Assembly: GCA_040260805.1 (NCBI GenBank)
Contig: JBDQPD010000004.1
Location: 6,219 to 70,218 of the forward strand
DNA length: 64,000 nucleotides
Source of the DNA: Myxococcota bacterium
GTDB taxonomy: Bacteria > Myxococcota > UBA4151
Direction: 5' to 3'
Below the pieces are notes generated by a model. That model saw only the letters and a list, made by a program, of their open reading frames with translations, searched no databases and had not been told where the DNA came from. The translations under genes were made by a program, and so were the position numbers. Numbering within the stretch: the first letter of the stretch is position 1; each line of letters starts with the position of its first letter. Positions 1 through 32,535 of the stretch are shown piece after piece.

Positions 1-1451
1 GTTCATCGCGGTCGACCATTTCATCGCTGTCGAGAATATGCAGGGTGCGACGTGTCTGCTGTTGCTTGGTTTTGTCGTTACTCAGCGCGTGGTCCAAATC
101 GCTCTCTTTGGTCGCCTCGCGCGGCGTGAGGTAAATCTCACCATCATCGATATACACCGACTCCAAAGCGATATCAGGAGCGATCCCCGTGCCTTGGATG
201 CTGATATCACCAGGCGTTAGGTATTGAGCGATGGTCAACTTGAGCGCCGACCCGTCCGTCTTAGAGCGTCGAGGACGATACGGAATAATCGTCTGCACTG
301 AGCCTTTACCGAAGCTCGGACTGCCGAGCAGCAAGCCCCGCCCGTGATTGCGCACGGCGCCAGCCACTATCTCCGAGGCCGAGGCAGAGCCGCCGGAGAT
401 CAGGACCAATAAGGGCAGATCAGTCAATGAGCCCGATGCATGAGCGTAACGACTTTCTCTGAGCTGTCCGGACAAGCCCACGGTGGTGACGATCACCCCT
501 TTATCGAGAAAGAGATCCGAGATCGCGACGGCTTGCTCGAGCAAGCCGCCTGGGTTGTCACGCAAGTCGAGCACTAAACCCTTTTTGGCGCCCGCCTGGC
601 GCAGCTGAGCCAGCGCGGCGACCGTGTCGTCGGTCGTTGTCTCTCGAAACGATTTGATCCGCAGATAGCCGATCCCATCACCCAGGTTATGAGACGTCAC
701 GCTGCGGACCTTAATGATCTCTCGGGTCAGCGTCTTTTGAAGGTTACCCTTAGTCCCTTTGCGGCGAAGGTGAACGGTTACATCACTGCCCGGCTCACCG
801 CGCAGTCGACTCACCGCTTCTTCAAGCGACATATTTTCAGTGGTCTCGTCGTTGATCTGGACGATCTGGTCACGCGCTTTGACGCCCGAACGGCTGGCCG
901 GTGTACCCGGAATCGGTGAGATCACCGTGAGCCAACCATCACGCTGAGAGATAACAATCCCCAAGCCACCAAAGGCGCCCTGAGTCGACATGCGCATCTC
1001 CTCATGCGCTTTGGCGCTGAACATCACCGAGTGCGGATCGAGCGTCTTGAGCATGCCGTTAACCGCTGCGAGTTCGACCTCGCCCGCGTCCACTCCGCTG
1101 GGCAAATTACGCGCAACAAAAGCGAGACCCTGGCGCAAGACCATATACATTTCCCAGATCGATTCGACCCGAGAGGTGTTTCCCGTCCACGCCTTATCGC
1201 CCATTCGAAGCGTCAAGGTTTTGGGTAAGCCGCGCTCGTCGACCAACAGATCGGGGATGACGTTTTCAACAGCCCGCAGTCCCTCTTTGAGCATCGTTTT
1301 GGGCTCAAAGCGGCTCGGGTCCACGTAGGCTTTAGTCAGCTCCAAAACGCTCCAGCTCAGCTGCTCGAGACGAAGCAAGCGGTCACTTCCAGCGCCCAAG
1401 CTAGGCTGCATGGCGCTGAGCACAAGGGGCAGAACAATGGTAACGATCATC
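1..1451 (-). CDS. Carboxyl-terminal processing protease (S41 family, Ctp/Prc-like), C-terminal part beyond window edge
   Basis: Minus-strand translation from ATG at 1451: MIVTIVLPLVLSA... contains PDZ region (GGLGIVISQRDGWLTVISPIPGTPA) and S41 catalytic motifs (LVLISGGSASASEIVAGAV; LGSPSFGKGSVQT). ORF runs off position 1. Confidence 0.85.
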
Positions 1452-1475
1452 TTCGCAAACAACACTTTATAACCT

Positions 1476-2078
1476 CTAGGCGTCCGAGCCGTTGAGTCGA
1501 GCTAATATAGCCGGCCAAACTGACCCGTCGACCACAGTTTCTATTTCTGCCTGTGCAAAGGCTTCAACCCATTGACAGGCGAACACAACAGCCTGTTCCG
1601 AAATCATCACATCCGCTCCCGCTAGAGCGGTCTCACCCAAGCTATCGATCCATGCCGCCAAGTCGATGGATAAGGCATCTGAAGGCGCTGAACTGACCCC
1701 CTTGAGCCGGGTCACGAGTGCGTCGGTCACCCCGTCGCTCTTAATCGGCTTGGGCGAGCTAACTTTGACGCTGAGTTGACCCGACTCACTGACCTCGCCA
1801 AGCGCTAAACCTAGAGCGATCGCGCTTCGTGACAGACTACCATTACTGAACCGATCATAAGCTCGCTGAGACGCCAACAGCTCAAACCATTGAGCCAAGG
1901 TCATCTCCGCTACGCGATCACGCCAAGCGTCGCTTTGAGCCCGAACCATAGGAACCAAAACCGAGCCCAAGGCGATCAAACCCTGGGCACGACCGAAAAG
2001 TTCTGCGGTTGATCGATGATGGCTCGAGCGACGCGCTACCTCCTGAAGCAAGGCAAACCGAGCGTTTACATTGGTCAC
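1476..2078 (-). CDS. Hypothetical protein (200 aa), downstream of aldolase/BMC-P genes
   Basis: ORF with GTG start preceded by GAGGGGAAA RBS; GC3-rich codon usage; no recognisable family. Confidence 0.5.
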   Translation of the reverse strand: MTNVNARFALLQEVARRSSHHRSTAELFGRAQGLIALGSVLVPMVRAQSDAWRDRVAEMTLAQWFELLASQRAYDRFSNGSLSRSAIALGLALGEVSESGQLSVKVSSPKPIKSDGVTDALVTRLKGVSSAPSDALSIDLAAWIDSLGETALAGADVMISEQAVVFACQWVEAFAQAEIETVVDGSVWPAILARLNGSDA

Positions 2079-2124: not shown

Positions 2125-2775
2125 TCAAAGTTTCAATCCGGGTGCGCCCAAGCCAGCCTTGAGATGCTTCTGAGTTAGGGCAGATACGACTGAGGACTCT
2201 AGAGTCTTTACGCCGCCGAAGGGTAGGGCGTGCGCTGTGATCGTTGCCAAATGTTCCACCAACTCCATACGCGCCATCGCCATGGTCAAATCTGAACCCC
2301 AGGTGAGCACCCCGTGCTGGCCTAAAAGCGCTGCGTTGCTGTTGATCGCAGCTCGAGCCACGGCCTTGGTCAACCCAGCGGCTCCGGGCATCGAAAACGG
2401 CACCCAGCCGATTTCAGGACCTAAACTGACGATCGCCTCAGCCATAAAGCGAGGATCCAGTCGACGTTCGGCGCAAGCCATCGCCGTCGCAAAGGGAGGA
2501 TGAGCGTGAACGATCGCACGCATGTCAGGCCGAGCTTCAAATGCTGCTCGATGCAGCTGCCACTCACTAAAGACCCGGTGTCGCCCCTGGCGTACCGAGC
2601 CGTCCTCATCGATCACCAGCAGATCGACTGCGCGAACATCAGCCTTTCGAAAAGCGGTGGGCGTGACCAAAAAACCTTGCTTAGGCCGGCGCAACGAGAT
2701 GTTGCCGTCATGATTCGCCACCCAGCCTTTGGTGGCTAACTGCTGACAAGCCTCGATCAGCGCTGATGCGCTCAC
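2125..2775 (-). CDS. Class II aldolase/adducin family protein (fuculose-/ribulose-phosphate aldolase-like)
   Basis: N-terminal GNISLR...GFLVTP and metal-binding HAHPP motifs typical of class II aldolase fold; 4-nt ATGA overlap with upstream BMC-P gene. Confidence 0.8.
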
Positions 2776-3023
2776 TCGGCCCCCGTGACTTCGTCAACAA
2801 CGCCAACGATTACGGACCGAATGGGAGGTTCGCCGCCCAAGATCTGGCGCACGCCGCTGCCTTCACGCAAGACCAGAACCTGCTCTCCAACCCCTACCCC
2901 GATCGTGTCCACAGCCAGCACATCTTCTCCGGCTTCACTGCGAACCATCAGCAGGGGTTGCCCGTCATAGCCTGGGTGATGTTGATCGGCGACGACTGAA
3001 CCGAGGACTCTAGCCAGCAGCAT
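2772..3023 (-). CDS. BMC vertex protein, BMC-P (EutN/CcmL/PduN family)
   Basis: [14 protein letters not shown]...LLMV...[21 protein letters not shown]...[13 protein letters not shown] matches EutN/PduN consensus (M-x-A-R-V-G-x-V ... D-x-G-A-G-x-G-E-x-V-L ... D-A-x-I-G-I-V-D). Alternative upstream start at 3044. Confidence 0.75.
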
Positions 3024-3291
3024 GGTCCCCCCGATCGATATCATCCACGATACCTACGATGGCTAAATCGACCGGCACGAAGGTCGGCTCGCAAGCCAGC
3101 GCAGCTTCACGACTACCCACCAAGACAACACGCTGACCTAGGCTCGCCGAGCAGCTATCAACGGCCGCTTCAGGCACGCCATCCGGTGCCCCATCATGGT
3201 TCTCTTTTTGAACCAAGAGCAGACGCGCTCCAACCAGGTTCTCAACTTTACGCGTCGCAACGACGGTCCCGACTACTGTTCCAAATTGCAT
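3010..3291 (-). CDS. BMC vertex protein, BMC-P (EutN/CcmL/PduN family), second paralog
   Basis: [28 protein letters not shown]...[25 protein letters not shown]...[15 protein letters not shown]; internal ATG at 3291 chosen over longer ORF (3390). Confidence 0.8.
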
Positions 3292-3293
3292 AA

Positions 3294-5195
3294 TTATCTC
3301 TTCGGAAGTTTCCAAGGCACTTCGACCGGAACGATCTCTTTGCCAGGGAAGCTTGGAAAGCGCCAACGTCGCACTTTGCCTTGAATACAACGACTAACAT
3401 CCGCCCCTTTGTAGGCCTCGGTCATAATCTCTACGCTCGCTACTCGCCCACTCGGCTGAATACCAATCCGAGCCCTGAGCTCGCCGAACATCGACTGACC
3501 ACGCGTCATCGCCCGACTCACACAAGCGGTGATGCCGCGTTGCCCGCGACCAATCACCTTGGCGGCGGCTTTGACATCGAGCTGCGAGGCTCGGCCTGGT
3601 GGCGTCGACACCTCTGGCAAAGGCAGCCGCACGGTTCCCAAAGCGGACTGCAGCGCGGCCATCCGCTTGAGGTCCGCACCATTCACCTGCGCAGCTTTGC
3701 GGAGTCGTTCTTCTTCAGCTGCGGCAGGGTCTTGCTCGACCGCTACGCGAGGTGCCTTGGATCCTTTGGACCGCTTCGAGCGTGAACGGGCCTCTTTAGC
3801 CAGTTCTTGGGTCACCGCTTTGTCGGCAGCGACCAGCTTGTCTTTGATCACTTCGTCACGACACGCCCCCGTCAAGCATTCCAACATCGCTCGACCCTCA
3901 GCTGCGTTGATCGACTGACCACGGTGATAAGGTGCTACGCCTGGCTTGTCCGTGGTCTCGGAAAACTGCTCACGAGCTTTGATCAGCGCTTCAACGGGCA
4001 TCAACAAACTGAGCGCCTCTTGGGCGGTCTTGCTTCGAGCGAAGGCTTGGAATGTGGGGTGACCCGCAGGACAATCAAACCCGTCCGCGCCGGCAACCGG
4101 GCCAGCATCCGACTCGGCTTGAATCGCGGCGCAAGCGCTGAAGTTACCCCGACCTAAGCGCACCTCAACGCGACCATCTTTTAGCGCCATCATCTGCAGG
4201 GACCAACCTTTGACGATCACGAGGTCTTGATAGCTCAGATTTTCAATCACAGCGGCCGCCACAATGCTGCGCTCGCGCTGGTCGGCTCCTGCCTTCTCTC
4301 CGAGCTGCATCAGGCGAACATAGGAAGGCTGCCCTCGAGATGTGAAGGTCGCTTTCTTCATCCCTTTGGCGAAGGGGTTCGGAACCCAACCCTGGTTCAT
4401 CCCCACGCCAAGTCCAACCAGGCCCAAGAGGATCACGCCAAAGATAACTCGTCGCCGACGAGCGCCTTGCTGCAGACCACTTGCCAGCAGAAACAGCCGG
4501 GTCTCCTCACCGATGGAGGACAGGGACGGCTCATTGATGAACGGCGCCGCACTTTGGGACGCAACAGACTCTTCTGCGTGACCATCATCTTTGACCTCAC
4601 GGCCGACCCAAGCCGGCTCAGCCGCTGGGTCTGACGGCATGGTAGGCACGGGCTTATCCCGCTTGGCTTCGGGTTCAACAGGCTGAGCGACGACCGGCTC
4701 TTCTGCGGCTGGCTGCGGCGGTGCAGGCTGCTCAGGGTCAACAACCGGTTCGACCGGGAGGGTCGGCGCCCGACTCGGGAGCACCGCCTCTACCACCGAA
4801 GACACGCCTGTTTTATCCAGCAGAGTTGCCAGTTCGGGAACATCACGAAGGGGCAACCAACCGCTCATTCCCGATCGCCAGGCGTGATCCTTTGGACCAA
4901 ACTCAGAGCGCTCGAGTCGTTCTTTAATCTCGAGCGTGTTCATCGGTCCTTGGCGTTCACCATCTTTCGCAAGGAACCACTCTTGAGCATCGCCAGCCGG
5001 CACTTCACCGCTCTTCGAGAGCGCCGAACGCAGGTCCTCAGCCGACATGCTATCCAGCGCGCCGATGCTTCGCTCAGGGTCCCGAACGACCATCACCCCT
5101 TTGCATTGCCGACACCGAATTTTGAGCACACGACCGCGTATGGTCTCCTCGTCGAGACTGTACTTGGTCCCACAATGCTCACAGCGGAATTTCAT
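3294..5195 (-). CDS. MJ0042-type zinc-ribbon / DUF4339 / TM / AgmX-PglI C-terminal (TonB-C-like) domain protein
   Basis: MKFRCEHCGTKYSL...IRCRQCKGVM zinc ribbon; WFLAKDGERQGPM...WRSGMSGWLPL (DUF4339-like); Pro-rich linker; TM helix VIFGVILLGLVGLGVG; C-terminal GRVASVEIMTEAY...RWRFPSFPG typical of myxobacterial AgmX/PglI C-terminal domain. Confidence 0.7.
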   Translation of the reverse strand: MKFRCEHCGTKYSLDEETIRGRVLKIRCRQCKGVMVVRDPERSIGALDSMSAEDLRSALSKSGEVPAGDAQEWFLAKDGERQGPMNTLEIKERLERSEFGPKDHAWRSGMSGWLPLRDVPELATLLDKTGVSSVVEAVLPSRAPTLPVEPVVDPEQPAPPQPAAEEPVVAQPVEPEAKRDKPVPTMPSDPAAEPAWVGREVKDDGHAEESVASQSAAPFINEPSLSSIGEETRLFLLASGLQQGARRRRVIFGVILLGLVGLGVGMNQGWVPNPFAKGMKKATFTSRGQPSYVRLMQLGEKAGADQRERSIVAAAVIENLSYQDLVIVKGWSLQMMALKDGRVEVRLGRGNFSACAAIQAESDAGPVAGADGFDCPAGHPTFQAFARSKTAQEALSLLMPVEALIKAREQFSETTDKPGVAPYHRGQSINAAEGRAMLECLTGACRDEVIKDKLVAADKAVTQELAKEARSRSKRSKGSKAPRVAVEQDPAAAEEERLRKAAQVNGADLKRMAALQSALGTVRLPLPEVSTPPGRASQLDVKAAAKVIGRGQRGITACVSRAMTRGQSMFGELRARIGIQPSGRVASVEIMTEAYKGADVSRCIQGKVRRWRFPSFPGKEIVPVEVPWKLPKR

Positions 5196-5410
5196 TGCGC
5201 TCCATGGGCAGCCGATCGGCAAAGCCTGCCGAGAAAGCATGAACGTCTACGACGTCGCCCGAATCCTATAGTTTACTGCCGCCTCGGAAGAAACCCCCCG
5301 AATGATCGTCATCATTCCAGTAACACAGCAACGTGCTATGCGGTTGAAGTCGGCTGAAAAAGCGGTAAAGACGATAGCCGCGGATCAACACCTGAAAAGG
5401 AGCCAAAACG

Positions 5411-9368: not shown

Positions 9369-10405
9369 GTCAGTGCATCCTTGCGGTCGAGACCAGCTGC
9401 GATGAAACCGCAGCAGCGGTGCTCAAAGATGGAGAAATCGTAGCCGAAGAGATTCATACCCAAACCGATCTTCACAGCTACTATGGTGGGGTCGTTCCGG
9501 AGCTCGCAAGCCGCGACCATGTGGCGCACGTCGGCGCAGTCTGCCAATCGGTCTTGCGCGGGCATGAGGACGATCTGGATGTGATCGCTGCGACCCGTGG
9601 TCCAGGTTTGATCGGCGGCTTGCTCGTCGGTCTGCAGTGGGCAAAAGCTTATGCCTTTGGGCGTGGACTTCCTTTTGTTGGAGTTCACCACCTAGCAGGC
9701 CATCTCGCTGCGCCTCGATTGGACCCTGAGTTTGACCTTGAACCGCCGATGGTGTGTTTGCTGATCAGCGGCGGGCATACCCAACTCTACGCCATCGAGG
9801 GCTGGGGTGCGGCGCGTTTGCTCGGCGGGACGCGCGATGATGCCGCCGGCGAGGTCTTTGACAAAGGCGCTCGATTGCTCGGTCTGGGGTACCCTGGCGG
9901 ACCCGCTGTGCAAAAAGCAGCATCAACTCACCAAGGACCAAACCACCGGCTCCCACGACCGATGCTCAAGCGTGGGCTGGAGATGAGTTTTAGTGGTCTC
10001 AAAACAGCGCTCCGGGATGAAGTTTTTCGTCGCGACGCCGAGGGGCAACTCACAGACCCAGTACGTCACGAACTGGCCTTCTCGTTGCAAGACGCCATCG
10101 TTGACGTTCTGGTCCATAAAGCGTGCGAGGCACTTCGCGAAACAGGCTACCAAAGACTGACAATCGGCGGCGGCGTCGCAGCCAACGGACCCTTGAGAGC
10201 CGCGCTGCTTGAGGCTTCAAAATTGCATGGCTTTGAGCTGTACCTGCCACCGAAAAAGTGGTGCACAGACAACGCAGCGATGATCGCTGCAGCAGCGGCC
10301 ATTCGCTACGAACAAAAGGGCGCTGATGGGTTTGAGCTTCCGGCGCGAGCGAGATGGCCATTGGTTGAAGAGTGGGACACAGCGCAGACGCGCCCGACTC
10401 CTTAG
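9365..10405 (+). CDS. tsaD: tRNA N6-adenosine threonylcarbamoyltransferase TsaD (Kae1/Gcp)
   Basis: MSQCILAVETSCDETAAAV...HHLAGHL...GGGVAANGPLR; ATGA overlap with kinase stop. Confidence 0.9.
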   Translation: MSQCILAVETSCDETAAAVLKDGEIVAEEIHTQTDLHSYYGGVVPELASRDHVAHVGAVCQSVLRGHEDDLDVIAATRGPGLIGGLLVGLQWAKAYAFGRGLPFVGVHHLAGHLAAPRLDPEFDLEPPMVCLLISGGHTQLYAIEGWGAARLLGGTRDDAAGEVFDKGARLLGLGYPGGPAVQKAASTHQGPNHRLPRPMLKRGLEMSFSGLKTALRDEVFRRDAEGQLTDPVRHELAFSLQDAIVDVLVHKACEALRETGYQRLTIGGGVAANGPLRAALLEASKLHGFELYLPPKKWCTDNAAMIAAAAAIRYEQKGADGFELPARARWPLVEEWDTAQTRPTP

Positions 10406-10409
10406 TCAA

Positions 10410-12617
10410 TCACTCGAGCTCTGCAAGCCAGCGTTCAACGGCGGCGTCCGGTCGACCGGCTACCGCCTTGTATTTCGCGAGCAGCGCGCGCGCCCTGCTC
10501 CTGGCACCCTCGTCGCCACTCTTAAAGCTTTGATACTCAATGAGCCCAAGAGTTTTGAGCGCAAACGCGTTGCTGCTGTCCGCGGCGATAGCCGATCGAA
10601 GGTCAGACTTCGCTTTATTGGGTGAGCCTGCGCTAAAGTAAGCTTCTCCGCGCTCGGATAAGGCGATCGAGCGCTCCGCTGGAGAGATCTTTTGTTTGAG
10701 GGCTATGCTGATTAATTCGACGGCGCCATCGAGGTTTCCGTCATCACGCAACATCCGTGCGCCCTGCATTTTTTTGGCGAAATCACCGCGCTGCAAACGA
10801 CTGCGGTTGGACCGACGCACCCGACGCACCCGACGACGCCGGCGACGACGACGCTTAGCTTTCTTTCGAGGTTGCGGCTTTTCTGCAATCGGCTGAGGTT
10901 CAAGTGGTCGGTTCGGGGCTGACTCACCAGGCAGCTCGTCACCGCCGGGTGTCTCTGGCAGTTCAACCGGCGGAAGCACCGCTTGAACAGGATTTTGGAA
11001 GCGCTTCGAATAGCTGTAGGTCGAATAGGCTCCCAATCCGAAGATCACGAAACCGATGGCAGCGGCACGTAAACGCTTGAGCAGCCTCTGAGATGAACTC
11101 TCATGATCTAGCGGTTCTTCACCCCCAGGCGCTGAGGTGATCTGATCGTCATGCCCGAAGGTCCCAGTCCCCATCGCCCGATAAGGATTCGTCGTTTGTT
11201 TCGATGACGACTTGGGTGCCTGATAAGGCGGTAAATCGGCATCGAAGGACCGATCCGTCGGGGGCATCTCATCGTCAACGTCATCATCGAGTATCGGAGG
11301 CAGGTCATCCGGTTCAGCGAACACATCTCCGTCATCAAGAACTGGCGGGGCTTCGAACTCCCCAGTCGCATCGACAACCGGAGGTTCGCTGCCGACCAAA
11401 AGCGGCTCAAGACCCGGCGGCGAATCAGCGATTGATTCCGGCGCTTTTGTCTTAAAGTAAGTCTGCGCAGCGCTCAGCGCATCCTCAATACCTAGGTCCA
11501 AATCAGGGAGCTGATCCCAGTCCCTGTCGACCTCTGACCAGCCTTCTTCCTTGAGCGATGCTCCGGGTAAGCCCGAAACGCCTTTGACCGCGAGCGACCA
11601 GGCGAAATCGTCCTCTAAGGATCCTTCTTTCGATGACTCAACAGGCTCGTTTTCAGACGGCTCTAAGGACGCATCAATCGCTAACCCGACCGCTCGCGAC
11701 GAGCCTCGGTTAGCGATGAGAATTCCATCTTCGATAAGGGACAAAGCCCCTTCAATCGCGCGTAAGCCGCCCATGTTCCAAAGTGATTTGATGTCGCGCT
11801 TGCCATCGACGAGGCGAAAGATCCAAGCGACGTCATCGCTCAAGACGTTGAGGCGATGCAGCAACCGCTCAGGGTCGGTATCGAGCACTCCCTGGGGCGC
11901 TCGAGTCATCATCTCAGCGGTGCGCAACTCAAGCGCATCAGCCTCAGCAATATAGGACGCAGACGAGCGCAAGCTCTCTCCTTGAGGCGCTTGTTGGCGA
12001 TCAAATCGGTAGCTACCCTCTCGAAGACTCAGCAAAACACACAGGGCTTCCGCGCCGGTTAGACCGCCGCAGACGACCAACCCCATCTCGCCACGTCGCA
12101 TGTGGATTTGACCCGGTGCTTCTGGTGCATCAATCACCATCACCCCACTAAACAGGCTCGATGCAGCTCGAGCGAGGTCGTGACGTAGAGAGCCTTTGGC
12201 GAGTGTTGAGCCCTGCGATAAACTGGACTGCTGAAAGTTCTCGATAATGGTTGAGATCTGACTCGCCGCTGCCGGAAACCGCAACGGGCGCTCGATGGCG
12301 TTGACGTCTTCACCGAGGTCTTCGGCCGCTTCGTCGACCAACACCATCACCGAGATACCTAGGCGATTCGCCGGCTCAATGATGTCGCTATCGAGATCGA
12401 GTTTCTCACTTTCTCTGCCGAGGTGATCGCCGACCACCAAAACACCGTGCACGCCATCGACTGACAACACGCCCTCGAGATCGACGAAGTGATTCGGCAC
12501 GGCCAGTTCGAAACCCGCCTGCCGCAAAGCAGAGTCGACGATACTGCGTTCTAGATCTGCAGGACCCACAAGGACCAGGCGCCAAATCGTACTCAACGCT
12601 GCTCCTCTCCTGCGCAT
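10410..12617 (-). CDS. DUF4388/receiver-like N-terminal domain protein with Arg-rich tract and C-terminal TPR-like region
   Basis: N-terminal CheY-like fold without clear phospho-Asp; DUF4388-like segment (GLVVCGGLTGAEALCVLLSLREGSYRFDRQ); acidic Pro-rich middle; KKAKRRRRRRRRVRRVRR tract; TPR-like C-terminus. Start uncertain (12617 vs 12719). Confidence 0.55.
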   Translation of the reverse strand: MRRRGAALSTIWRLVLVGPADLERSIVDSALRQAGFELAVPNHFVDLEGVLSVDGVHGVLVVGDHLGRESEKLDLDSDIIEPANRLGISVMVLVDEAAEDLGEDVNAIERPLRFPAAASQISTIIENFQQSSLSQGSTLAKGSLRHDLARAASSLFSGVMVIDAPEAPGQIHMRRGEMGLVVCGGLTGAEALCVLLSLREGSYRFDRQQAPQGESLRSSASYIAEADALELRTAEMMTRAPQGVLDTDPERLLHRLNVLSDDVAWIFRLVDGKRDIKSLWNMGGLRAIEGALSLIEDGILIANRGSSRAVGLAIDASLEPSENEPVESSKEGSLEDDFAWSLAVKGVSGLPGASLKEEGWSEVDRDWDQLPDLDLGIEDALSAAQTYFKTKAPESIADSPPGLEPLLVGSEPPVVDATGEFEAPPVLDDGDVFAEPDDLPPILDDDVDDEMPPTDRSFDADLPPYQAPKSSSKQTTNPYRAMGTGTFGHDDQITSAPGGEEPLDHESSSQRLLKRLRAAAIGFVIFGLGAYSTYSYSKRFQNPVQAVLPPVELPETPGGDELPGESAPNRPLEPQPIAEKPQPRKKAKRRRRRRRRVRRVRRSNRSRLQRGDFAKKMQGARMLRDDGNLDGAVELISIALKQKISPAERSIALSERGEAYFSAGSPNKAKSDLRSAIAADSSNAFALKTLGLIEYQSFKSGDEGARSRARALLAKYKAVAGRPDAAVERWLAELE

Positions 12618-12793
12618 GCAAAGCGTGCGCGCACCTCGCGCGCGGCCGATCCATGAACGACCGACATCGACACATTCTGATCCCTGATTCACAAGGAACC
12701 AAAAAATATGCAGGCGCAAAAATCAACGATCGGGCTTTGCAAAGATTATTTCCGAGGTTAAGCGCTCTTCACTACATTGCCGGAGGGCGCACC

Positions 12794-14060: not shown

Positions 14061-15131
14061 TTAGACCGCTCGATTAAGCGCCCAACTGAAGAGCTGGGGC
14101 TTACGGATAAAGACCGAAAAGACACGCTTACGCAGCGTCGGTCGCTGGTGCAGTTGCAAGAGCAGATGGGTGAGCCGCCGCTTGCTGCTCAGCGTCCGCC
14201 AGAGCGCCGCTTCCAAGCCGGCAACTCGACCACCAGCGATCCCACTCTCAAGGGTCTGAGCTAAAATCCGTGCCTGCGCAAAGCCAGCGCTGAGCCCTTC
14301 GCCGCTGATGCCATCAAAGAAGGCTAAGGCGTCACCTACAAAACAGCCACTATCAAACGTCGCTCGACTCGCCGACACCGCCATGCGGCCGATTCCACGA
14401 CCACTACTCGCAGTTTCAGCGCCATCAAAACGACCCTTGAGACCATCAAAATGGTCAAGCCAACGCCACAAACGATCTTTACCTTTCGGGACGTCAAAGC
14501 CCTCTCGCCAAAGTAGCGCTACGCCCAGCTCGTCTTCGGACACCGGGGTCAGGTAGGCTTCGCAGCCCATGCCCCAGTGGACCTCTACAAAGGCGCTCGG
14601 CGGGCGGATACGAAGGTGCTGCCTCCAACCTAAACGATCAACGTTCATTGGCGGTTTCCCGGTCATTCCAAGCTGTTCTCGGAGCACCGAACGCGGGCCG
14701 TCGGCGACCACGACAAACTCCGCCTCAACGTGACCAAGAGCGGTGTCCAAACGCCACCCTTGATCCGTCTTCTTCATCTCTGAAACGCCGCAATTGGCAT
14801 GCAGCTCGACCCCCGCATTGCAGGCATCGACGAGCGCTGAACTCAAGACGGTTCGACGCACGCCCAACGCAGGGTCCTCGCCAAAAACCCCCCGAAAGGA
14901 ACCCACACGAGCGTCATGGTATTCGATCCCGTGAAGCGGCATGCCCTTGGGGGTGACCCCCAGCGCCTGAAGATGCTTTAATCCGTCCGGTAAAATCCCC
15001 TCGCCGCACGCACGGTCTTGCGGCCAGTCCGCCCGCTCAAAGACGTGCACTTGTCGACCCACCTGACTCAAAGCTAAAGCGGCAGCGAGCCCCGCAGGCC
15101 CCCCACCGACCACTGCGATCTCGGTTTTCAT
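14061..15131 (-). CDS. FAD-dependent oxidoreductase (geranylgeranyl reductase/monooxygenase-like), FtpE-like
   Basis: IAVVGGGPAGLAAAL dinucleotide-binding motif; last gene of type III PKS operon; 4-nt overlap with FAAL gene. Confidence 0.75.
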   Translation of the reverse strand: MKTEIAVVGGGPAGLAAALALSQVGRQVHVFERADWPQDRACGEGILPDGLKHLQALGVTPKGMPLHGIEYHDARVGSFRGVFGEDPALGVRRTVLSSALVDACNAGVELHANCGVSEMKKTDQGWRLDTALGHVEAEFVVVADGPRSVLREQLGMTGKPPMNVDRLGWRQHLRIRPPSAFVEVHWGMGCEAYLTPVSEDELGVALLWREGFDVPKGKDRLWRWLDHFDGLKGRFDGAETASSGRGIGRMAVSASRATFDSGCFVGDALAFFDGISGEGLSAGFAQARILAQTLESGIAGGRVAGLEAALWRTLSSKRRLTHLLLQLHQRPTLRKRVFSVFIRKPQLFSWALNRAV

Positions 15132-16843
15132 CGGCGACGCATCAGCAGCTTACGCCGCCCATCAAAGGTCTCTGCCAGTAGCCTCAGAACGCCAACCTTT
15201 TGAGGGGCATTGAGCAGCTGATCGAGCCAACGCCGCCGCGCCTCTTGGCGCCGAATTTTTCCTGACGACGTGCGCGGCAAACTGCCAGCAGGGAGCACCT
15301 CGACAGCAGCCGGGTTGAGACCTGTGGCGCCGCGAACGGCTTGGCGCATCTGCACTAAGGTCTCCTCGCTCACCTCGCCATGAGCCTCGGCGAGTAAAAC
15401 CACCGCTTCGCCCTCATCAACAGTAATCGCAAAGGCGGCGCTGCAGCCTGCTCTCAAGCCAGCGATCTCATGAACGGCTTGCTCGATAACCGCTGGGTCA
15501 TGGTTTCGGCCGCGCAGGATGATCAGATCTTTGGCGCGACCGGTCAGATACAGCTCGCCTCGCCAAACGAAGCCTTCATCGCCGGTATCAAGCCAGCCAT
15601 CAGCCATGATCTCTTGAGTCGCTTTGGGGTCGTCCAAATAGCCCTGCATCACGCCAGGACCCTGGACCCACACACGACCGATCTGCCCCTCGCCAAGCGC
15701 TTTAGAGCCATCACAGATCTTGAGCTCATGTCCGGGAATTGGCTGCCCTAAGCTGACCCACTGATCACCAGAATCTAAAGGCTCAAATCGTCGTGTTTTC
15801 TCGACGCGCTCACGATCTCCAAAGACTCGACTAAAAGGCTTCTTCAGATCCGAGAATGTGACGGCAAGCGTCGCCTCAGCCAAGCCGTAAACAGGCGTCA
15901 GCGCTTGGCGCGGCAAGCCCACCTGCGCGAAGCGGTCGACGAAACGATCGAGAGTGGCAGGATGAACCGGCTCGGCGCCACACAATGCGACCATCCAACG
16001 ACTCAGGTCGAGCCCGCTCAAATCTTTGACGCGATCAGCGCACAATCCATAAGCAAAATTCGGAGCGACCGAGATGGTTGCCCCACTTTCGGAGAGCGCT
16101 TCAAGCCATAATCGAGGGCGCGCAATGAATCGCTCGGGCGGAAGTAAGGTCAGGGTACCCGGCGTAATCAAGGCAACGACCAAGGCGCCGATCAACCCCA
16201 TGTCGTGATACAAAGGAAGCCAGCTCACCCCCGAATGCTCACGGGGATCGCCAGGAAAAGTGCTCATGATCGCCTCAGCGTTAGCGATCATATTGTAATG
16301 GCTCAAAGCCACCGGCTTGGGATCACCGGTGGTCCCTGAACTAAACTGAATGCAGGCGAGATCATCGGGGATCGGTACCGCATCGAGTTGAGGGGGCTTC
16401 GAACCCAGTAGATCGCCAACTTTTAGCGCGCCAAGCGGGATCTCAGCGGCGGTCGTGGGATGCCCGACAAGGCCCAACAAGCGATGATCGGTCAACACCG
16501 CCTTCGCCGGAAGTCGGCGCAGCATCTGGGTCGTTCTTTGCTTCCACTCTGAGAGCAAACCTAAACGCACCGGAGGGTACAGCGCAGCAGGAATTGCGCC
16601 GGCAAAAAGGACCCCAAAGAAGGCGTCATAAAAGTCGATCGATGTCGGCAAAATGAGCGCCACTCGATCGCCCGGCACCACACCGCGAGCCTGCAGTGAA
16701 CCCGCGACCCGGCGCGCCCGCTCGAGGATGTCACGATAGGTGTACGAGACATGGGTCCCGGGTCGCTCTTGGAACCGTAGCTCGACATCTTGAAAACTCG
16801 CTGCACGACGCAGCGCATCGACTAAGGTCTCAGGCCTGTTCAT
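15128..16843 (-). CDS. Fatty acyl-AMP ligase (FAAL) / AMP-dependent synthetase, FtpD-like
   Basis: FSSGTTGDPKPV AMP-binding motif; FAAL-type architecture; adjacent ACP. Confidence 0.85.
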   Translation of the reverse strand: MNRPETLVDALRRAASFQDVELRFQERPGTHVSYTYRDILERARRVAGSLQARGVVPGDRVALILPTSIDFYDAFFGVLFAGAIPAALYPPVRLGLLSEWKQRTTQMLRRLPAKAVLTDHRLLGLVGHPTTAAEIPLGALKVGDLLGSKPPQLDAVPIPDDLACIQFSSGTTGDPKPVALSHYNMIANAEAIMSTFPGDPREHSGVSWLPLYHDMGLIGALVVALITPGTLTLLPPERFIARPRLWLEALSESGATISVAPNFAYGLCADRVKDLSGLDLSRWMVALCGAEPVHPATLDRFVDRFAQVGLPRQALTPVYGLAEATLAVTFSDLKKPFSRVFGDRERVEKTRRFEPLDSGDQWVSLGQPIPGHELKICDGSKALGEGQIGRVWVQGPGVMQGYLDDPKATQEIMADGWLDTGDEGFVWRGELYLTGRAKDLIILRGRNHDPAVIEQAVHEIAGLRAGCSAAFAITVDEGEAVVLLAEAHGEVSEETLVQMRQAVRGATGLNPAAVEVLPAGSLPRTSSGKIRRQEARRRWLDQLLNAPQKVGVLRLLAETFDGRRKLLMRRR

Positions 16844-17081
16844 GGCGTTCCTTTAAGCGCTGCTCAACCAAGTCGATCAGCTCACGAACGGTTTGCGGCG
16901 GCTGATCGGGGGGTTCTTCAAGGCACAGGTCGAAGTGATTTTCGGTCTCGAGCGCAAGGGTGAGTAAGCCCATCGAATCCAAGCCGAGATCTTCTTGCAG
17001 ACGAGCATCGAGCGTCACGTTGTCGGTCACACCGCAGTGTTCGGCTAAGATCGTACGCACCGCATCAAAACGTTCGCTCAT
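16830..17081 (-). CDS. Acyl carrier protein
   Basis: 83 aa with LGLDSM phosphopantetheine-attachment motif. Confidence 0.8.
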   Translation of the reverse strand: MSERFDAVRTILAEHCGVTDNVTLDARLQEDLGLDSMGLLTLALETENHFDLCLEEPPDQPPQTVRELIDLVEQRLKERHEQA

Positions 17082-17587
17082 CCGCCGAGTGCCTCCTCTT
17101 CGACCGAGATGCGATGACGCAGCAGCAGTCCATTAGCTACGGTAAAGAAGACCGCAGTAAACCAGCCACCAAAGACCAATGGCAGCGCAAAAATCTCAAG
17201 CACCACGCCCAGATAGTTGGGGTGTCGAATCCATGTAAAAGCACCGCTGGTCACCAGCGGCTCATTAGGTAGGACCAATACGCGCGCCGTCCAGCGCTCG
17301 CCCAGCGATCGCATGGCGAGTAATCGAAGCGTTTGCCCAACGATCACGAGCACAAGCATACCGACCGCTAAGAACGGGTTGGGTAGACCGTGGCCACCAA
17401 AGACGGCTTCGCCAGCGCAGGAGACCAACCACAAGGTGTGCAACGCGACCATCACCGGAAAATGACCGGCGCCAACCTCTTGAGCCCCCCGCGCGCGCAG
17501 AGCTTTTTCATGGCGCCGCGACCGAGCGGTTTCGGCTAAACGCTGGACCGCCACTAAACCGACAAGCGCAAGATAACACCCAAGCAT
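17078..17587 (-). CDS. Isoprenylcysteine carboxyl methyltransferase (ICMT) family membrane methyltransferase, FtpB/SrsB-like
   Basis: Multi-TM with RHPNYLG...E motif of ICMT/PEMT family; embedded in type III PKS operon. Confidence 0.8.
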   Translation of the reverse strand: MLGCYLALVGLVAVQRLAETARSRRHEKALRARGAQEVGAGHFPVMVALHTLWLVSCAGEAVFGGHGLPNPFLAVGMLVLVIVGQTLRLLAMRSLGERWTARVLVLPNEPLVTSGAFTWIRHPNYLGVVLEIFALPLVFGGWFTAVFFTVANGLLLRHRISVEEEALGG

Positions 17588-17590
17588 AAG

Positions 17591-18652
17591 CTACCTCGCC
17601 TCAAGCACGCAGAGCTCAGCACAAAAGGCGGGACCAAACGCAAAGAGTAACCCTTTTGAGCCCGACTCAAAGCCGGCCGATATCGCATCGGCGAGGACAA
17701 AGAGCACCGAGGTGCTGCTCATGTTGCCAAAGCGCGCAAGGCTGTCCCAACTCCGAGCAAAGTCGTCATCGGTAAGACCCAACGCCGCCGCAGCGCTTCG
17801 AAGCACCTTGGGTCCGCCGGGGTGCCCAACAAAGAAACTCAAATCGCTGCGCGTCAGACCATCTTGTTCCAAAATGGCGTCGAGCGCTCCAGGCATCTCA
17901 TGGGCGACCACCTCGGCGACCGTGGGGGCGAGCACGACCTTAAAGCCTGAGCTGACCACATCCCAGCCCATGATGCGCTCCGTCTCGGGGATAAAGTGTG
18001 ACCGGCTGGCGCGCACGGCGACCGGAGCTTTCGTGGCGAGGGGGTGCTCGTCACCGACCATCACCACAGCGGCTCCGCCATCTCCAAACAAGCCCGAAGC
18101 GACAATGTTGGCGACACTCAGATCTTCTTTTTGAAGGGTTAAACTGCACAGCTCAACCGAGACAAAGACGGCTGCCGCCTTAGGATGCCCTTTGAGAAAG
18201 TCAGAGACTCGGTTGATCCCAGCGGCGCCGGCTAAACAGCCCAAACCAAACAAAGGCATGCGCCGAGTCGTCTGGGCAAAGGGTAGCTGATTCATGAGAC
18301 GCGCATCAAGGCTCGGTACCGCCACCCCAGTGACCGTCGTGCTGGCGATCAAGTCCACCTGATCAGCGGGCAACCCCGCTTGATCCAGCGCCCCTTGCAC
18401 CGCTCGAGTAGCCAGCGGAACCGCAACCTCGATCCAGGCATCATTGTGGTCACCAAAGCCCTCGAGCGCGTCATAACGCTCAATCGGCAAGGCGAGGTGG
18501 CGACCACCGACTAAGACGTTGCGTTGAAACTTAGCGATGCGCTCAGGGTTGGCGTAACGCGTCCCCCATCGCTCCATGAGCGCTTCGATCAGCTGGTCTT
18601 GACCGTAAAAGTGATCGGGAAGGGCGGTCTGAACTGAGATGATATGAGGCAT
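17591..18652 (-). CDS. Type III polyketide synthase (chalcone/stilbene synthase family), FtpA-like
   Basis: 353 aa; active-site Cys context LFGLGCLAGAAG, C-terminal GHPGGPKVL and FGPAF motifs of CHS-like thiolase fold. Confidence 0.85.
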   Translation of the reverse strand: MPHIISVQTALPDHFYGQDQLIEALMERWGTRYANPERIAKFQRNVLVGGRHLALPIERYDALEGFGDHNDAWIEVAVPLATRAVQGALDQAGLPADQVDLIASTTVTGVAVPSLDARLMNQLPFAQTTRRMPLFGLGCLAGAAGINRVSDFLKGHPKAAAVFVSVELCSLTLQKEDLSVANIVASGLFGDGGAAVVMVGDEHPLATKAPVAVRASRSHFIPETERIMGWDVVSSGFKVVLAPTVAEVVAHEMPGALDAILEQDGLTRSDLSFFVGHPGGPKVLRSAAAALGLTDDDFARSWDSLARFGNMSSTSVLFVLADAISAGFESGSKGLLFAFGPAFCAELCVLEAR

Positions 18653-18686: not shown

Positions 18687-19832
18687 TCAATCGGTTCCGG
18701 TTTGAATCAGATACTTCTTCATGTTGCGACTGTAGACCTGTCGCCAATCCTGCTGATCACGAACTAGAAAGAGCGCTTCAAGATCAGGATCTGAATCCAC
18801 GAACTTCAGGCCCTTTTCATCGCCCATCACCATCAGCGCAGTGGCATAGGCATCTGCGGTGGCGCAGTCTTTGGCGATCACCGTTACACTAGCCAGTCGA
18901 TGGACTACCGGCTCACCATTACGCGGATCAACGATGTGCTGCACACGCCGGCCGTTCTCGATTCGAAACTGACGATAATCCCCGCTCGTCGCCATCGCCG
19001 AATCAGCGAGCTTGACGATCGCAGCAAAACGCTTGCCGGGCTCGACTCCATCGACCGGAGCATCGACGGCGAGCTTCCAGGCTCCGCCTTGGGCTCGCTC
19101 GCCCCAGGCGACCACTTCTCCACCAATTTCGACCATGCCGTGTTGAGCGCCGGCTGTTTTCAGGATTCCAGCGACACGGTCGACGGCATAGCCTTTGGCG
19201 ATTGCGCTGAGGTCCAAACGCATACCGGCGTCCGCTTTGATCAACTCGCCCGGTTTCCCCCAGCGCAGCTTGGTGTAGCCAACCAGCCTTCGAGCGGCGG
19301 TCAACTCCTCAGGCTTAGGCAGGGTTGTACGAGCTTTGGCACCAAAGCCCCATAAGCCGATCAGCGGACCCACCGTGGGGTCAAAGGCGCCTTGAGTGTG
19401 CTTGGCGATCTCGAAGCTTCGCTTGATCACCTCGATGCTTCGCTCACCCCAAACAAAGGGCTCGGCAGCGGCTTGGTTGAACGTTGAAATCGAGCTATCC
19501 TTTTGCCACGTCGACATGCCTTGATTGATCGCCTTGAACTCGGCTTTGACGGCCGCCAGCAGCTGAGTTTCATCCAGCCCTGCGCCGCGCGCCTTGGCGG
19601 ACCATGTCGTGCCAAAGACTCGCCCAGCAAGCTCGACACCCTGAACGCCTGTCGCTGGGCTGGGTTGAGGTGCTGCTTGAGCGGCAGGCTGAGCAGCGGG
19701 CTCGCTCTGGGTTGAGCATGCGCTGATCAGTAACGCCACGCCGAGGCAGGGTATCAAACGGTGATGAGGGCTAGTACAAAACCAGCGAACAGGCCTAAAA
19801 AGAGGTAGCATACATTTTCTCCCATCGTGCAC
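18687..19832 (-). CDS. apbE: FAD:protein FMN transferase ApbE (lipoprotein)
   Basis: Signal/lipobox LLISACS; ApbE family motifs (DLSAIAKGYAVD; HIVDPRNGEP). Confidence 0.8.
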   Translation of the reverse strand: MHDGRKCMLPLFRPVRWFCTSPHHRLIPCLGVALLISACSTQSEPAAQPAAQAAPQPSPATGVQGVELAGRVFGTTWSAKARGAGLDETQLLAAVKAEFKAINQGMSTWQKDSSISTFNQAAAEPFVWGERSIEVIKRSFEIAKHTQGAFDPTVGPLIGLWGFGAKARTTLPKPEELTAARRLVGYTKLRWGKPGELIKADAGMRLDLSAIAKGYAVDRVAGILKTAGAQHGMVEIGGEVVAWGERAQGGAWKLAVDAPVDGVEPGKRFAAIVKLADSAMATSGDYRQFRIENGRRVQHIVDPRNGEPVVHRLASVTVIAKDCATADAYATALMVMGDEKGLKFVDSDPDLEALFLVRDQQDWRQVYSRNMKKYLIQTGTD

Positions 19833-19858: not shown

Positions 19859-22612
19859 GTGACCCTAAGAATCACTTTACTGATCGGACTTTTGGGTAGT
19901 GCCTGCAGCGAGCGATTGCCGCAAGCACCCGACGGCTGTGAAGGGGTTCAATGTGGCTGCCAAGAACACACGGACTGCCCCATTGAGACCCCTGAATGCT
20001 GGGCTGGGCTGTGCAGAGAGAGCGACTCTACCGAGGTCGCTTGGGCTCATCGCGACATCATCTTGCCCGCTTCGGCGGACGCACCGGATTCGGATCTGCA
20101 TGCCGTGGATTTGGCTCGAGCGATCGACCTATCGAAGGACTCGCTAATCGACGGTCTGTTGAGCGAACAACCGATAACTAACTGGAGATTGTACGCCAAC
20201 GACGACGGAGACCGACTCGCTGTCCATGTCGGCGGTTTGATCATGGTCCGGCCCGCCCTAAACAAGCCACGGATCTGGCAACCCACGTCGAGAAAACTGA
20301 CGAATAACGGACCCGGTGTTCATCCGGACCTGCGCGCGATCGCTGGCTACGAGTCGCTCAAACAAACTGTTCTAAGCGCCTCAAGAAACGGCCTGTTGGC
20401 GTCGAGCAGCCCCGTGCGGCTTTTGAACACGTCGGAACACCGAGTGATCCTTGGCAAACCCTTGCACCGAATGATCGTTGATCTGATGGGACCCGTCGTA
20501 CCAGGAAGACCGACTGGCTCGTTGTCGATCGCCTCGCTCTCGAAGCTGATGCAGCGAGGCCACGCGCTGCCCCATCCCCGAAGTCTAGGGCCTAGTTTTC
20601 CCAGCCGGACCCGGCCTGAGTTGATCATCGGTCGAAACTATCGATTTTCGCTCGAGGCCGCTGCGGACCTGCGCATCGAAGAGCTGCTCAAATTGTCCAA
20701 CGCCAGCGTCCAGGATCTGATGAGTTGTGACGAGCTACGCGCTGCACATATCACCATCTCGATAGACGGTGGTGCGCCGCAAAGCTGGAGCCGCCAGGAC
20801 GACCCGTTCATTCGCTCGCTCGAGGCCGGCGAGCACACATTGAGTTTACGCTACCCAAGTAAAGTCCAGAACTGTCCAAACCTTGAGAACAACTCGAGCC
20901 TCATGCGTTGGGCTCGACTCACCCTGAAGTCAGACCGAGAGATCGAGCTGATCTCCTGGTCACCCGTGACCCCTCTTCCCATCGACAACAACGCGCGCCC
21001 CGTGCTGTACCGCGAGGACGCGGGTTTGTTGAGAGATAAAGACGGCGACAACTGGCCTGATGCGAGCGATCTTTGTCCTCAAGATCCTGATCAACAAAGG
21101 GATGGCGACCAAAATGGAATTGGGGATGCATGCGATGGGTTTTATTCGGCTCGAGCCGAAGAAGATCAGCTCACTGCGGTCAACCGAAACGGTGATGAGC
21201 TCGGCACCCAGTCGCTCCCAAACTTCAATCCCCTCTTGAGCTTTCAAACGGCGCTGACCTCCCCTCAAACCGAGATCACCTATCCTGATTCTGATGAGAT
21301 CAACGCCAACGCGGTGACCGGCGCAGTCATTTTCCAGACCAGCTCGGATGAGGACGTTTATCAGTGGAACCCAGACCAAGAGCCCCAGGCGCTCGGAATT
21401 GTTCCCATCGTCCCTGGCAATACCCCAACACAGCTCATGCAAATCCAGTCGAACCAACGCTACGCTGCGATGCATTTTCGGTTGCTTGGGAGTCTGACCC
21501 AGCTCGACATTCAAACGATTGTCATGAAAAATACGATTGCGAACCATGAGGACTCGGACAAGCGGCAGGTCACGACGCGCTACGTGTACAGCGGCTGGGA
21601 GCCAGCGTTCGCGGTCGCCGACCCTAGCGAGCCGTTGTTGTTGGTCTCGGACCAAGAGATCGGACATGCAGCGTTCAGCGCCATGCGCGTCTTTCCGGCC
21701 GCGCTGATACGGTTCCCCAGCCTCTTGCTGGCGCCGGCGATGACCCAATGCCAAGCGGATAACGACTGTCTTGTGCGAGGAAGCCACCTCACAGAAAACG
21801 GCGTCGACATTGCACGCACATGCGTCAGAAACCGCTGCGTCAGCGACAGCACAAGCGGTCGCTGTGTTCGCGAAGCTCAGCCGACGAGTTCAACCCTGAA
21901 CGCTTGTCGTCCGGAACAAAGCGGCACCTGCATCACCGGTGATTGCGACGACAACAACGCGAGCTGCTCGGCTGGCTTGTGCTGGCGGCCAGCCAACAAC
22001 GAATGCGCTCAAGGCGAGACCTGCCTCCCGAGCAACCTCTCGCGCAGCACCGCTAGCTCCTATTTTATGGGACTCATGCCTCGAGGCGTCGCCGGGCTTT
22101 TTGAGGGCGGCTACTTTAGTCCATTGAGCTATGCGCTCGCTCGAGATCTCGGCCTCGCCCTAGCGGCAAAGCAACTCGGCGTGGTCCAAGCCTTACCGAT
22201 GGACCGTGAAGCGCCCGTTGCGCTCACCGCGTGCCCGAAAGAGTGGCTCGATGGCAGGCTGACCGCTTACTTTACCCAAGAAGAGCAACGCAGCTTACTG
22301 CGCAGGGTGCTCGACCCGAACGTACGCGCTCAGGACCTCTTTGAAATCGCCGAGGTCGACCAGGCTTGGGTGTTGCAACCCGGTGACGATCCGCCGAGCT
22401 CGATTTGTCGACCCATTCGTTCGACATGGCGCGGTTATTTCCCCTCACAGCTTGCCCCTCAAACAGCAGAGTTTGTGGACATCGACAAAGATGGGATTAA
22501 TGAATTTCGAGTCGGCTTTTCAGTCTTGGAGCGCTCGCCGAGCGCCGAGCCTGCGGTCTACCGCTGTTTCGACTTTAATGGTGATCACCAAGCGACCAAT
22601 TGCACCCCTTAG
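19859..22612 (+). CDS. Large secreted/lipoprotein with Cys-rich N-terminal module and thrombospondin type-3-like Ca-binding repeat; paralog of 24265..27324
   Basis: Signal LLIGLLGSACS; DKDGDNWPDASDLCPQDPDQQRDGDQNGIGDACD (TSP3-like); C-terminus ...FVDIDKDGINEFRVGFSV...YRCFDFNGDHQATNCTP shared with paralog. Confidence 0.7.
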   Translation: MTLRITLLIGLLGSACSERLPQAPDGCEGVQCGCQEHTDCPIETPECWAGLCRESDSTEVAWAHRDIILPASADAPDSDLHAVDLARAIDLSKDSLIDGLLSEQPITNWRLYANDDGDRLAVHVGGLIMVRPALNKPRIWQPTSRKLTNNGPGVHPDLRAIAGYESLKQTVLSASRNGLLASSSPVRLLNTSEHRVILGKPLHRMIVDLMGPVVPGRPTGSLSIASLSKLMQRGHALPHPRSLGPSFPSRTRPELIIGRNYRFSLEAAADLRIEELLKLSNASVQDLMSCDELRAAHITISIDGGAPQSWSRQDDPFIRSLEAGEHTLSLRYPSKVQNCPNLENNSSLMRWARLTLKSDREIELISWSPVTPLPIDNNARPVLYREDAGLLRDKDGDNWPDASDLCPQDPDQQRDGDQNGIGDACDGFYSARAEEDQLTAVNRNGDELGTQSLPNFNPLLSFQTALTSPQTEITYPDSDEINANAVTGAVIFQTSSDEDVYQWNPDQEPQALGIVPIVPGNTPTQLMQIQSNQRYAAMHFRLLGSLTQLDIQTIVMKNTIANHEDSDKRQVTTRYVYSGWEPAFAVADPSEPLLLVSDQEIGHAAFSAMRVFPAALIRFPSLLLAPAMTQCQADNDCLVRGSHLTENGVDIARTCVRNRCVSDSTSGRCVREAQPTSSTLNACRPEQSGTCITGDCDDNNASCSAGLCWRPANNECAQGETCLPSNLSRSTASSYFMGLMPRGVAGLFEGGYFSPLSYALARDLGLALAAKQLGVVQALPMDREAPVALTACPKEWLDGRLTAYFTQEEQRSLLRRVLDPNVRAQDLFEIAEVDQAWVLQPGDDPPSSICRPIRSTWRGYFPSQLAPQTAEFVDIDKDGINEFRVGFSVLERSPSAEPAVYRCFDFNGDHQATNCTP

Positions 22613-24165: not shown

Positions 24166-24264
24166 ATCCTAGGCCGTCAAAACAGGAAATGCACGGTTTC
24201 GGTAGACAAGCGACGACCAAAACGTGAGCGGGTCATTAGGATGACTTCAAACGGCGCAAGCATC

Positions 24265-30509: not shown

Positions 30510-30523
30510 GATCGCCGTCCTTT

Positions 30524-31138: not shown

Positions 31139-31141
31139 GAT

Positions 31142-31789: not shown

Positions 31790-31792
31790 GCC

Positions 31793-32527: not shown

Positions 32528-32535
32528 CGTTCCTC

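Follow-up and report, generated by a model that had tools for sequence, protein, structure and literature searches.

Three genes that overlap end to end lie on the minus strand near the beginning of the 64-kb stretch of Myxococcota DNA analyzed here (hereafter, the window). The first two encode paralogous bacterial microcompartment (BMC) proteins of the BMC-P type, a 93-aa protein that we call Pb (positions 3010-3291; PF03319, 82.2 bits) and an 83-aa protein that we call Pa (2772-3023; PF03319, 64.4 bits), and the third encodes a 216-aa class II (FucA/DrdA-like) metal-dependent aldolase (2125-2775; PF00596, 152.9 bits). The Pfam cut-offs for these families are 25 bits for PF03319 (EutN_CcmL) and 22.2 bits for PF00596 (Aldolase_II), and the PF03319 matches of Pb and Pa each span profile positions 1-83. 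A first-pass annotation of this DNA had described two adjacent EutN/CcmL/PduN-type ORFs and had considered that both might fall below the PF03319 threshold; both scores are well above it, and every protein string quoted in that annotation is present in the window ORFs. Reading of the DNA also confirmed the overlaps that it claimed, 14 nt between the two BMC-P genes and 4 nt between a BMC-P gene and the aldolase gene: the Pb stop codon (TAG) lies 14 nt inside Pa, which starts with ATG, and at the Pa/aldolase junction the 4-nt overlap reads GTGA, with the GTG start of the aldolase sharing the Pa stop. The Pb ATG is found 2 nt past the stop of an upstream 648-aa gene. Relatives of the window BMC-Ps in the PDB include the BMC-P of the Haliangium ochraceum (HO) microcompartment (5V74), EutN and CcmL, with E values of 1e-7 to 1e-11.

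No other microcompartment gene accompanies the trio in the window. Searches of the 64 kb by tblastn and phmmer with BMC-H probes, which match related loci at 1e-44 to 1e-49, identified no BMC-H gene, nor did an HMM of 119 HO-type BMC-H sequences. When Tdp, Ts and AldDh sequences of bona fide HO main loci served as phmmer queries, only the two BMC-Ps were matched, and Pfam assigned the 49 larger window ORFs to housekeeping and unrelated genes, with no further microcompartment gene among them. The probes, HMM, phmmer and Pfam results thus bear out the earlier statement that BMC-H and BMC-T genes are missing from the window, and AldDh is likewise absent. We counted the absence of BMC-H, BMC-T and AldDh from these 64 kb, along with the missing encapsulation peptide (EP) described below, against the explanation that we favor.

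The aldolase and its C-terminus

The AlphaFold model of the aldolase has a pLDDT of 96.1, and in Foldseek it superposes on FucA and DrdA with TM scores of 0.84-0.89 and an rmsd of ~1.9-2.1 Å over 202-205 aligned columns, the FucA chains in these alignments having 205-212 resolved residues. Escherichia coli FucA (PDB 1FUA) resembles the window aldolase in both fold and length (215 vs 216 aa), and the 5-deoxyribulose-1-phosphate aldolase DrdA of B. thuringiensis (PDB 6BTG) has the same fold and superposes equally well, although sequence identity to FucA and DrdA is only 25-30%. At the metal-binding positions of FucA, the window aldolase has E71, H90, H92 and H154, which line up with the E. coli motifs SSEW, VHNH and QHHG; in the family alignment the first three residues are invariant and H154 is nearly so. 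The zinc ligands of FucA at the aligned positions are Glu73, His92, His94 and His155. All NCBIfam equivalog models score the aldolase far below their cut-offs (best NF005302, 93.4 vs 264; TIGR01086, 79.4 vs 400), and the positions of FucA Tyr113 and Tyr209 are occupied by Phe and Ala, respectively. That no equivalog cut-off was reached is a further observation that we counted against our favored explanation.

The first-pass annotation had described a ~30-aa C-terminal extension on this aldolase and had suggested that it could be an EP. The Pfam PF00596 envelope covers aldolase residues 5-179, and the tail does lie outside it; this extension, however, is one beyond the Pfam boundary and not beyond the enzyme. 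Solved FucA structures align up to residue 205 of the 216 in the window aldolase, corresponding to residue 207 of the 215 in FucA, and across 45 homologs an AGL motif at residues 207-209 is strongly conserved, with A207 invariant and G208 and L209 each present in at least 90%. AlphaFold also places residues 187-216 confidently, including a helix at 194-206 with pLDDT values of 84-98. At the other end of the protein, the alignment begins at residue 4 (FucA residue 8), and no N-terminal extension is found.

The window aldolase stops 7 aa after the AGL motif, and all members of its clade stop 7-11 aa after it. Nearly two-thirds of the aldolase homologs (73 of 112) run at least 30 aa, and up to 100 aa, past AGL, and most of these 73 long tails consist of an Ala/Pro-rich linker followed by a terminal amphipathic helix, for example LAQIIRDELTKALQK and LGAIVREEIARALREH. 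These long homolog tails past AGL are the real EPs, situated 30-100 aa further downstream than the window tail. An EP HMM built from the 73 homolog tails recovers the independent aldolases of loci L015, L029, L018 and L008 at E <=0.003; run against every window ORF it produced no match, with a best E value of 0.11 to a spurious ORF. The aldolase therefore carries no EP, its tail being the conserved C-terminus of the fold, and the proposal of an EP in this tail is refuted by the conserved core, the negative EP HMM search and the more distal location of the real EPs. The closest relatives of the window aldolase (P0001-P0021, as well as the aldolase of locus L004) are all without an EP. Only about one-third of HO aldolases have a possible C-terminal EP (Sutter et al. 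2021, Suppl. Data 2, PMC8217296), meaning that the window aldolase is in the commoner state, shared with about two-thirds of HO aldolases. As a practical correction, Pfam domain boundaries are unsuitable for calling EPs on class II aldolases.

Relatives of the trio and its genomic neighborhood

A neighbor-joining tree of 73 BMC-P sequences contains three clades, corresponding to Pa, Pb and the pentamer gene that adjoins BMC-H. In both the tree and the alignment, the window BMC-Ps cluster with their Pa and Pb counterparts in complete main loci and not with the BMC-H-adjacent clade; the alignment shows that Pb carries its clade motif, and the Pa clade motif REG.GVRQIL..PIRS.IVG.VD is present in the window Pa. 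A 6-aa loop deletion in Pa is shared by the window and loci L001-L003, L043 and L044, with a shorter gap in the same loop in L004, and Pa is 82-83 aa long in the window, L043 and L044. These comparisons identify Pb and Pa as orthologs of the first and second genes, respectively, of the conserved HO-type BMC-P pair, the two specialized members of the HO BMC-P triplet.

Selection on the block was gauged against the orthologs in L044 (MAG GCA_902574205.1), with synonymous sites saturated in every comparison. Amino acid identity and dN/dS are 86% and 0.042 for Pb, 84% and 0.032 for Pa, 72% and 0.062 for the aldolase, and 53% and 0.147 for a 200-aa neighbor encoded downstream of it. With the lowest dN/dS and the highest identity, the two BMC-P genes are under tighter constraint than the rest of the block and are not relics, and their ratios of ~0.03-0.04, read at saturated dS, indicate that both are under strong purifying selection. 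Homology and purifying selection together suggest that Pa and Pb would form pentamers capping the vertices of a shell.

A genome scan covering one genome per GTDB species identified 39 loci encoding relatives of the aldolase, and in ~30 of these the aldolase is preceded by Pb and Pa orthologs, with the order and orientation seen in the window. The trio occurs without a BMC-H gene within 10 kb in L004, L007, L008, L010, L012-L015, L017, L018, L027, L029, L030, L034, L038, L040 and L041, while in L021, L022, L025, L031, L036 and L037 the module lies inside main loci that include BMC-H, a third BMC-P and BMC-T. The trio genes directly adjoin one another in the satellites, as they do in L022, L025 and L039; a distance of 1.5-4 kb separates the aldolase from the BMC-P pair in L021, L031, L036 and L037, and in L021 the aldolase is upstream of the pair. 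Type I main loci from other organisms have the gene order Tdp-H-P-AldDh-Ts and are without Pa, Pb and the aldolase, which fits a split architecture of main locus plus satellite. The BMC-H of the related main loci is HO-like, with 86-100% identity to Myxococcota BMC-H clusters, and these loci also carry a CsoS1D-type Tdp and AldDh in HO order. A search for BMC-H homologs returned at least 7,989 matches at E <=1e-20, the best 120 of which are all at least 86% identical. The genome loci closest to the window trio come from Myxococcales/Myxococcota MAGs. Orthologs of the aldolase are also present in Bdellovibrionota, where they have no BMC genes beside them and adjoin the dcw cell-division cluster, a context that gives no hint of the substrate.

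The genes flanking the trio in the window are transcribed from the same strand. Upstream, a gene on the minus strand (3294-5240) encodes a GltJ/AgmX-like membrane protein of 648 aa, in which Pfam and NCBIfam recognize an N-terminal MJ0042-type zinc ribbon, a GYF domain and an AgmX/PglI C-terminal domain; the NCBIfam model for the C-terminal domain (myxo_SS_tail) scores above its cut-off and the GltJ model scores below. A transmembrane segment is probable from the sequence, and the domain set is GltJ-like, as is typical of an envelope membrane protein. Downstream, a gene that starts 46 nt after the aldolase stop (1476-2078, minus strand) encodes an orphan protein of 200 aa that has no Pfam or NCBIfam match and only 4 homologs among 5.8 billion proteins. 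Its AlphaFold model, from a 4-sequence alignment, has a pLDDT of 37, too low to be usable; the protein has a short, amphipathic-looking N-terminal helix that is kept in L044, and as the identity and dN/dS values above indicate, it diverges faster than the trio genes. Next is a PDZ/S41 C-terminal-processing peptidase gene (2-1465, minus strand, running off the window start), assigned by PF03572 (167.7 bits) and PDZ domains.

From the 648-aa gene through the S41 peptidase gene, the spacings are 2, -14, -4, 46 and ~10 nt, and scans of the region or window for promoters, terminators, repeats, Rfam families and tRNAs gave nothing above chance. This tight spacing and the lack of a convincing terminator suggest that the block is co-transcribed in this lineage. 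BMC genes are not typically found in such a context, here an apparent operon that also encodes a GltJ-like membrane protein and an S41 protease of periplasmic type, and this was likewise counted against the explanation that we favor.

Gene order, including the PDZ/S41 peptidase, is the same in L043 and L044, and the whole neighborhood is syntenic within the window's clade, with LptF, LptG, a Ser/Thr kinase and TsaD upstream and the PDZ/S41 peptidase and RecA downstream. The zinc-ribbon gene adjoins the trio only in this clade (L001-L004, L043, L044), as do detectable homologs of the 200-aa protein (L001-L003, L043 and L044), whose positional orthologs are confined to L043 and L044. Neither gene is found beside the trio in any of the other satellite loci examined, and no flanking family of those satellites is common to more than three loci. 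The zinc-ribbon/AgmX-C protein and the 200-aa protein had been put forward as possible unrecognized cargo or ancillary factors, an idea that did not hold up, as they adjoin the trio only where the entire housekeeping neighborhood is syntenic. By gene context, both are best described as lineage-only neighbors and not as general microcompartment genes, and co-transcription with the trio is no evidence of a microcompartment role.

Comparison with known microcompartment types

The published catalog contains 41 HO loci, 30 of type I and 11 of type II (Sutter et al. 2021, Suppl. Data 2, PMC8217296), and in 24 of the 30 type I loci a pfam00596 aldolase is encoded on a satellite (Sutter et al. 2021, Nat Commun 12:3809, PMC8217296). 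The HO shell set consists of one BMC-H, a BMC-P triplet, two BMC-Tdp and one BMC-Ts (Sutter et al. 2021). The proposal that the window carries a BMC satellite, in which a class II aldolase accompanies two BMC-P genes, agrees well with the published description of the HO type I satellite (Sutter et al. 2021). Like that satellite, the window has two adjacent BMC-P genes followed by the aldolase on one strand, no BMC-H or BMC-T gene nearby and its closest genome loci in Myxococcota MAGs, and its aldolase is EP-less, as are ~2/3 of HO aldolases. Unlike the type I satellite, the window trio is set between a GltJ-like gene and the orphan and S41 protease genes in an apparent operon, and the Pa loop deletion of 6 aa in its clade (window, L043 and L044) is a further difference. 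The satellite is known here from 64 kb, and the main locus of this organism is one that we infer.

Type II HO main loci (L022, L025, L031, L036, L037) contain the same Pb-Pa-aldolase module and clade motifs as the window. In these loci, however, the module directly adjoins BMC-H, the third BMC-P, AldDh and BMC-T, whereas the window trio stands apart, and the type II aldolases of L022 and L025 carry a long linker and an amphipathic EP that the window aldolase lacks.

Taken together, these likenesses make it quite probable that the trio is the satellite module of an HO-type "type I" microcompartment from an uncultured Myxococcota lineage. The main shell locus likely lies elsewhere in this organism, as the first-pass annotation had reasonably supposed, since Pa and Pb are strongly constrained and orthologous to pairs that complete loci contain. 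There it would supply BMC-Tdp, BMC-H, the third BMC-P, an AldDh with an N-terminal EP and BMC-Ts, in that order, and the Pb and Pa pentamers would occupy vertices of the icosahedral shell. As the metabolosome paradigm and the description of HO loci suggest, the aldolase would split a ketose-1-phosphate into DHAP and a short aldehyde such as lactaldehyde or acetaldehyde, which a shell-enclosed AldDh would turn into acyl-CoA; any entry of the EP-less aldolase into the shell, and the route it would take, is conjectural. The kind of trio seen here is already catalogued as the HO type I satellite, and the window offers one further ordinary example, adding one uncultured marine Myxococcota lineage to the ~40 catalogued HO-type loci and showing a satellite trio under strong constraint. 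For microcompartment structure and engineering the HO shell serves as the main model, while its native function is still described as enigmatic, and each new locus context or EP-less aldolase adds a little to the picture of what the signature enzyme does. Current understanding is unchanged by the window trio.

PVM and PVM-like BMCs, the fucose/rhamnose metabolosomes of Planctomycetes and Verrucomicrobia, share a PF00596 aldolase with the window trio as their signature enzyme, and the first-pass annotation had named both the PVM type and the Haliangium ochraceum type as known aldolase-containing systems; our results support the latter, while the PVM part is without support. A PF00596 aldolase is the signature enzyme in PVM, GRM5 and ACI loci alike, and BMC-P triplets occur in ACI and FRAG types as well as in HO (Sutter et al. 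2021), so the trio could in principle derive from another aldolase BMC type (PVM, PVM-like, ACI or GRM5), but we regard such an origin as very improbable. All close relatives of the trio come from Myxococcota and allied MAGs, and the HO-like BMC-H, CsoS1D-type Tdp and AldDh of the related main loci stand in HO order. The ACI type occurs only in Acidobacteria, and its main locus includes an EP-bearing aldolase (Sutter et al. 2021), while PVM loci belong to another taxon and other relatives, their aldolase being encoded among the shell genes of a full main locus. No PVM-type main-locus genes (BMC-H, AldDh, PTAC) surround the aldolase in the window, and with relatives that are Myxococcota HO-type loci, a PVM-type assignment was rejected. 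Least credible of all, and scarcely worth entertaining on the present evidence, is the combined proposal that the aldolase is EP-targeted cargo and that the zinc-ribbon/AgmX-C and 200-aa proteins are BMC cargo or ancillary factors. It can draw on the position of the tail outside the PF00596 envelope, on flanking genes only 2 to 46 nt from the trio and on the amphipathic-looking helix that the 200-aa protein retains in L044, but the tail aligns to the FucA C-terminus, holds the AGL motif and is modeled confidently within the fold, and the real EPs of the 73 long-tailed homologs start past it and match no window ORF as an HMM. The flanking genes, moreover, stay beside the trio only within the wholly syntenic LptF/G, kinase and S41 protease neighborhood, and the zinc-ribbon protein has the domain set of a GltJ/AgmX-type membrane protein.

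An orphan or repurposed module, whose shell main locus was lost or never present and whose BMC-P pair and EP-less aldolase would work shell-free, for example as a soluble complex, is also unlikely, though it accommodates several features of the locus. An EP is missing from the window aldolase and from every close relative (P0001-P0021, L004), the 64 kb contain no other BMC genes, the trio is packed in an operon with non-BMC envelope genes, and the Bdellovibrionota aldolase orthologs exist without any BMC genes. To our knowledge, however, BMC-P proteins have no shell-independent role, and Pa and Pb exceed the aldolase in conservation (84-86% vs 72%, with dN/dS of 0.03-0.04) and keep the clade motifs common to pairs in complete main loci. 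Satellites are by definition without BMC-H nearby, and the EP-less state is that of the majority of aldolases in bona fide HO loci (Sutter et al. 2021, Suppl. Data 2). A satellite of an HO type I microcompartment thus remains the explanation that we prefer for the window trio. A more specific departure from it, which we consider decidedly unlikely, concerns the marine clade comprising the window, GCA_902574205.1, the ERZ28548063 contig and EAC29: here the module might be shell-free with a shell-independent role for its BMC-Ps, or the orphan 200-aa protein might serve as an adaptor that replaces the EP and brings the aldolase into the shell. In the operon of this clade, an EP-less aldolase and two BMC-Ps are encoded alongside a GltJ-like envelope protein, an orphan restricted to the clade and an S41 protease.

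Aldolase relatives and a possible chemistry of the satellite locus

The model of the class II aldolase encoded in the window at 2125-2775 (- strand) is as close to DrdA (PDB 6BTG/6BTD) as it is to FucA. DrdA is a 5-deoxyribulose-1-phosphate aldolase that acts in the salvage of a radical-SAM by-product, and the equal closeness of our model to both enzymes raises the idea that the aldolases of HO-type (Haliangium ochraceum-type) microcompartment loci may release acetaldehyde and DHAP.

Orthologs of this aldolase, at 39-44% identity, are also found in the Bdellovibrionota MAG loci L011, L016, L019, L023, L024, L026, and L028, at about position 10001 in most of them, and no BMC-P genes lie beside them. 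These orthologs end in a conserved C-terminal tail of the ALPPDPARPxWF type, and an rsmH-ftsL-ftsI-murE cell-division cluster is encoded directly downstream.

Variation among related satellite and main loci

Three stand-alone satellite loci carry a very large ORF upstream of the BMC-P gene Pb: L010 (224-9379; ~3050 aa), where it ends 7 nt before Pb, L008 (89-517), where it ends 57 nt before Pb, and L030 (88-7176), where it ends ~2.2 kb upstream. This ORF is a lineage-specific neighbor, different from that of the window. One type I HO main locus, L045, has an extra 208-aa gene (10068-10694) between the aldehyde dehydrogenase and BMC-Ts genes, the product of which has a weak guanylate-cyclase domain match as its sole hit. 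Within the window's own clade, the GltJ-like and 200-aa genes flanking the trio each appear to be broken across two or three frames in L043 (7121-9478 and 10662-11298), a 685-kb long-read contig from ERZ28548063; these breaks are probably assembly frameshifts, not pseudogenes.

Other gene clusters and domain proteins in the window

A compact cluster at 14061-18652 (- strand) resembles those for lipids of the alkylresorcinol/alkylpyrone type. It comprises genes for an FAD-dependent oxidoreductase, an acyl-activating enzyme of the AMP-binding family, an ICMT-family methyltransferase, and a type III polyketide synthase. Six genes at 29283-35249 (- strand), nqrA to nqrF-like, form an operon that matches a Na+-translocating NADH:quinone reductase, with an ApbE flavin transferase gene ~10 kb away (18687-19832, - strand).

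At 46731-48817 (- strand) lie three tandem paralogous genes, and the product of each contains a full-length AIM24 domain (PF01987, 188-202 bits). A 915-aa protein (39671-42418, + strand) has seven metal-binding motifs of the MopE type as well as two scavenger-receptor cysteine-rich (SRCR) domains, which are probably uncommon in bacteria. Four large ORFs of 518-1066 aa (10410-12719, -; 19859-22612, +; 22609-24165, -; 24124-27324, +) have no Pfam match at E <= 0.001. An FlhB/YscU-family export-gate gene (PF01312, 385 bits) stands alone at 44781-45857 (- strand): none of the neighboring genes belongs to a flagellar or type III secretion system.
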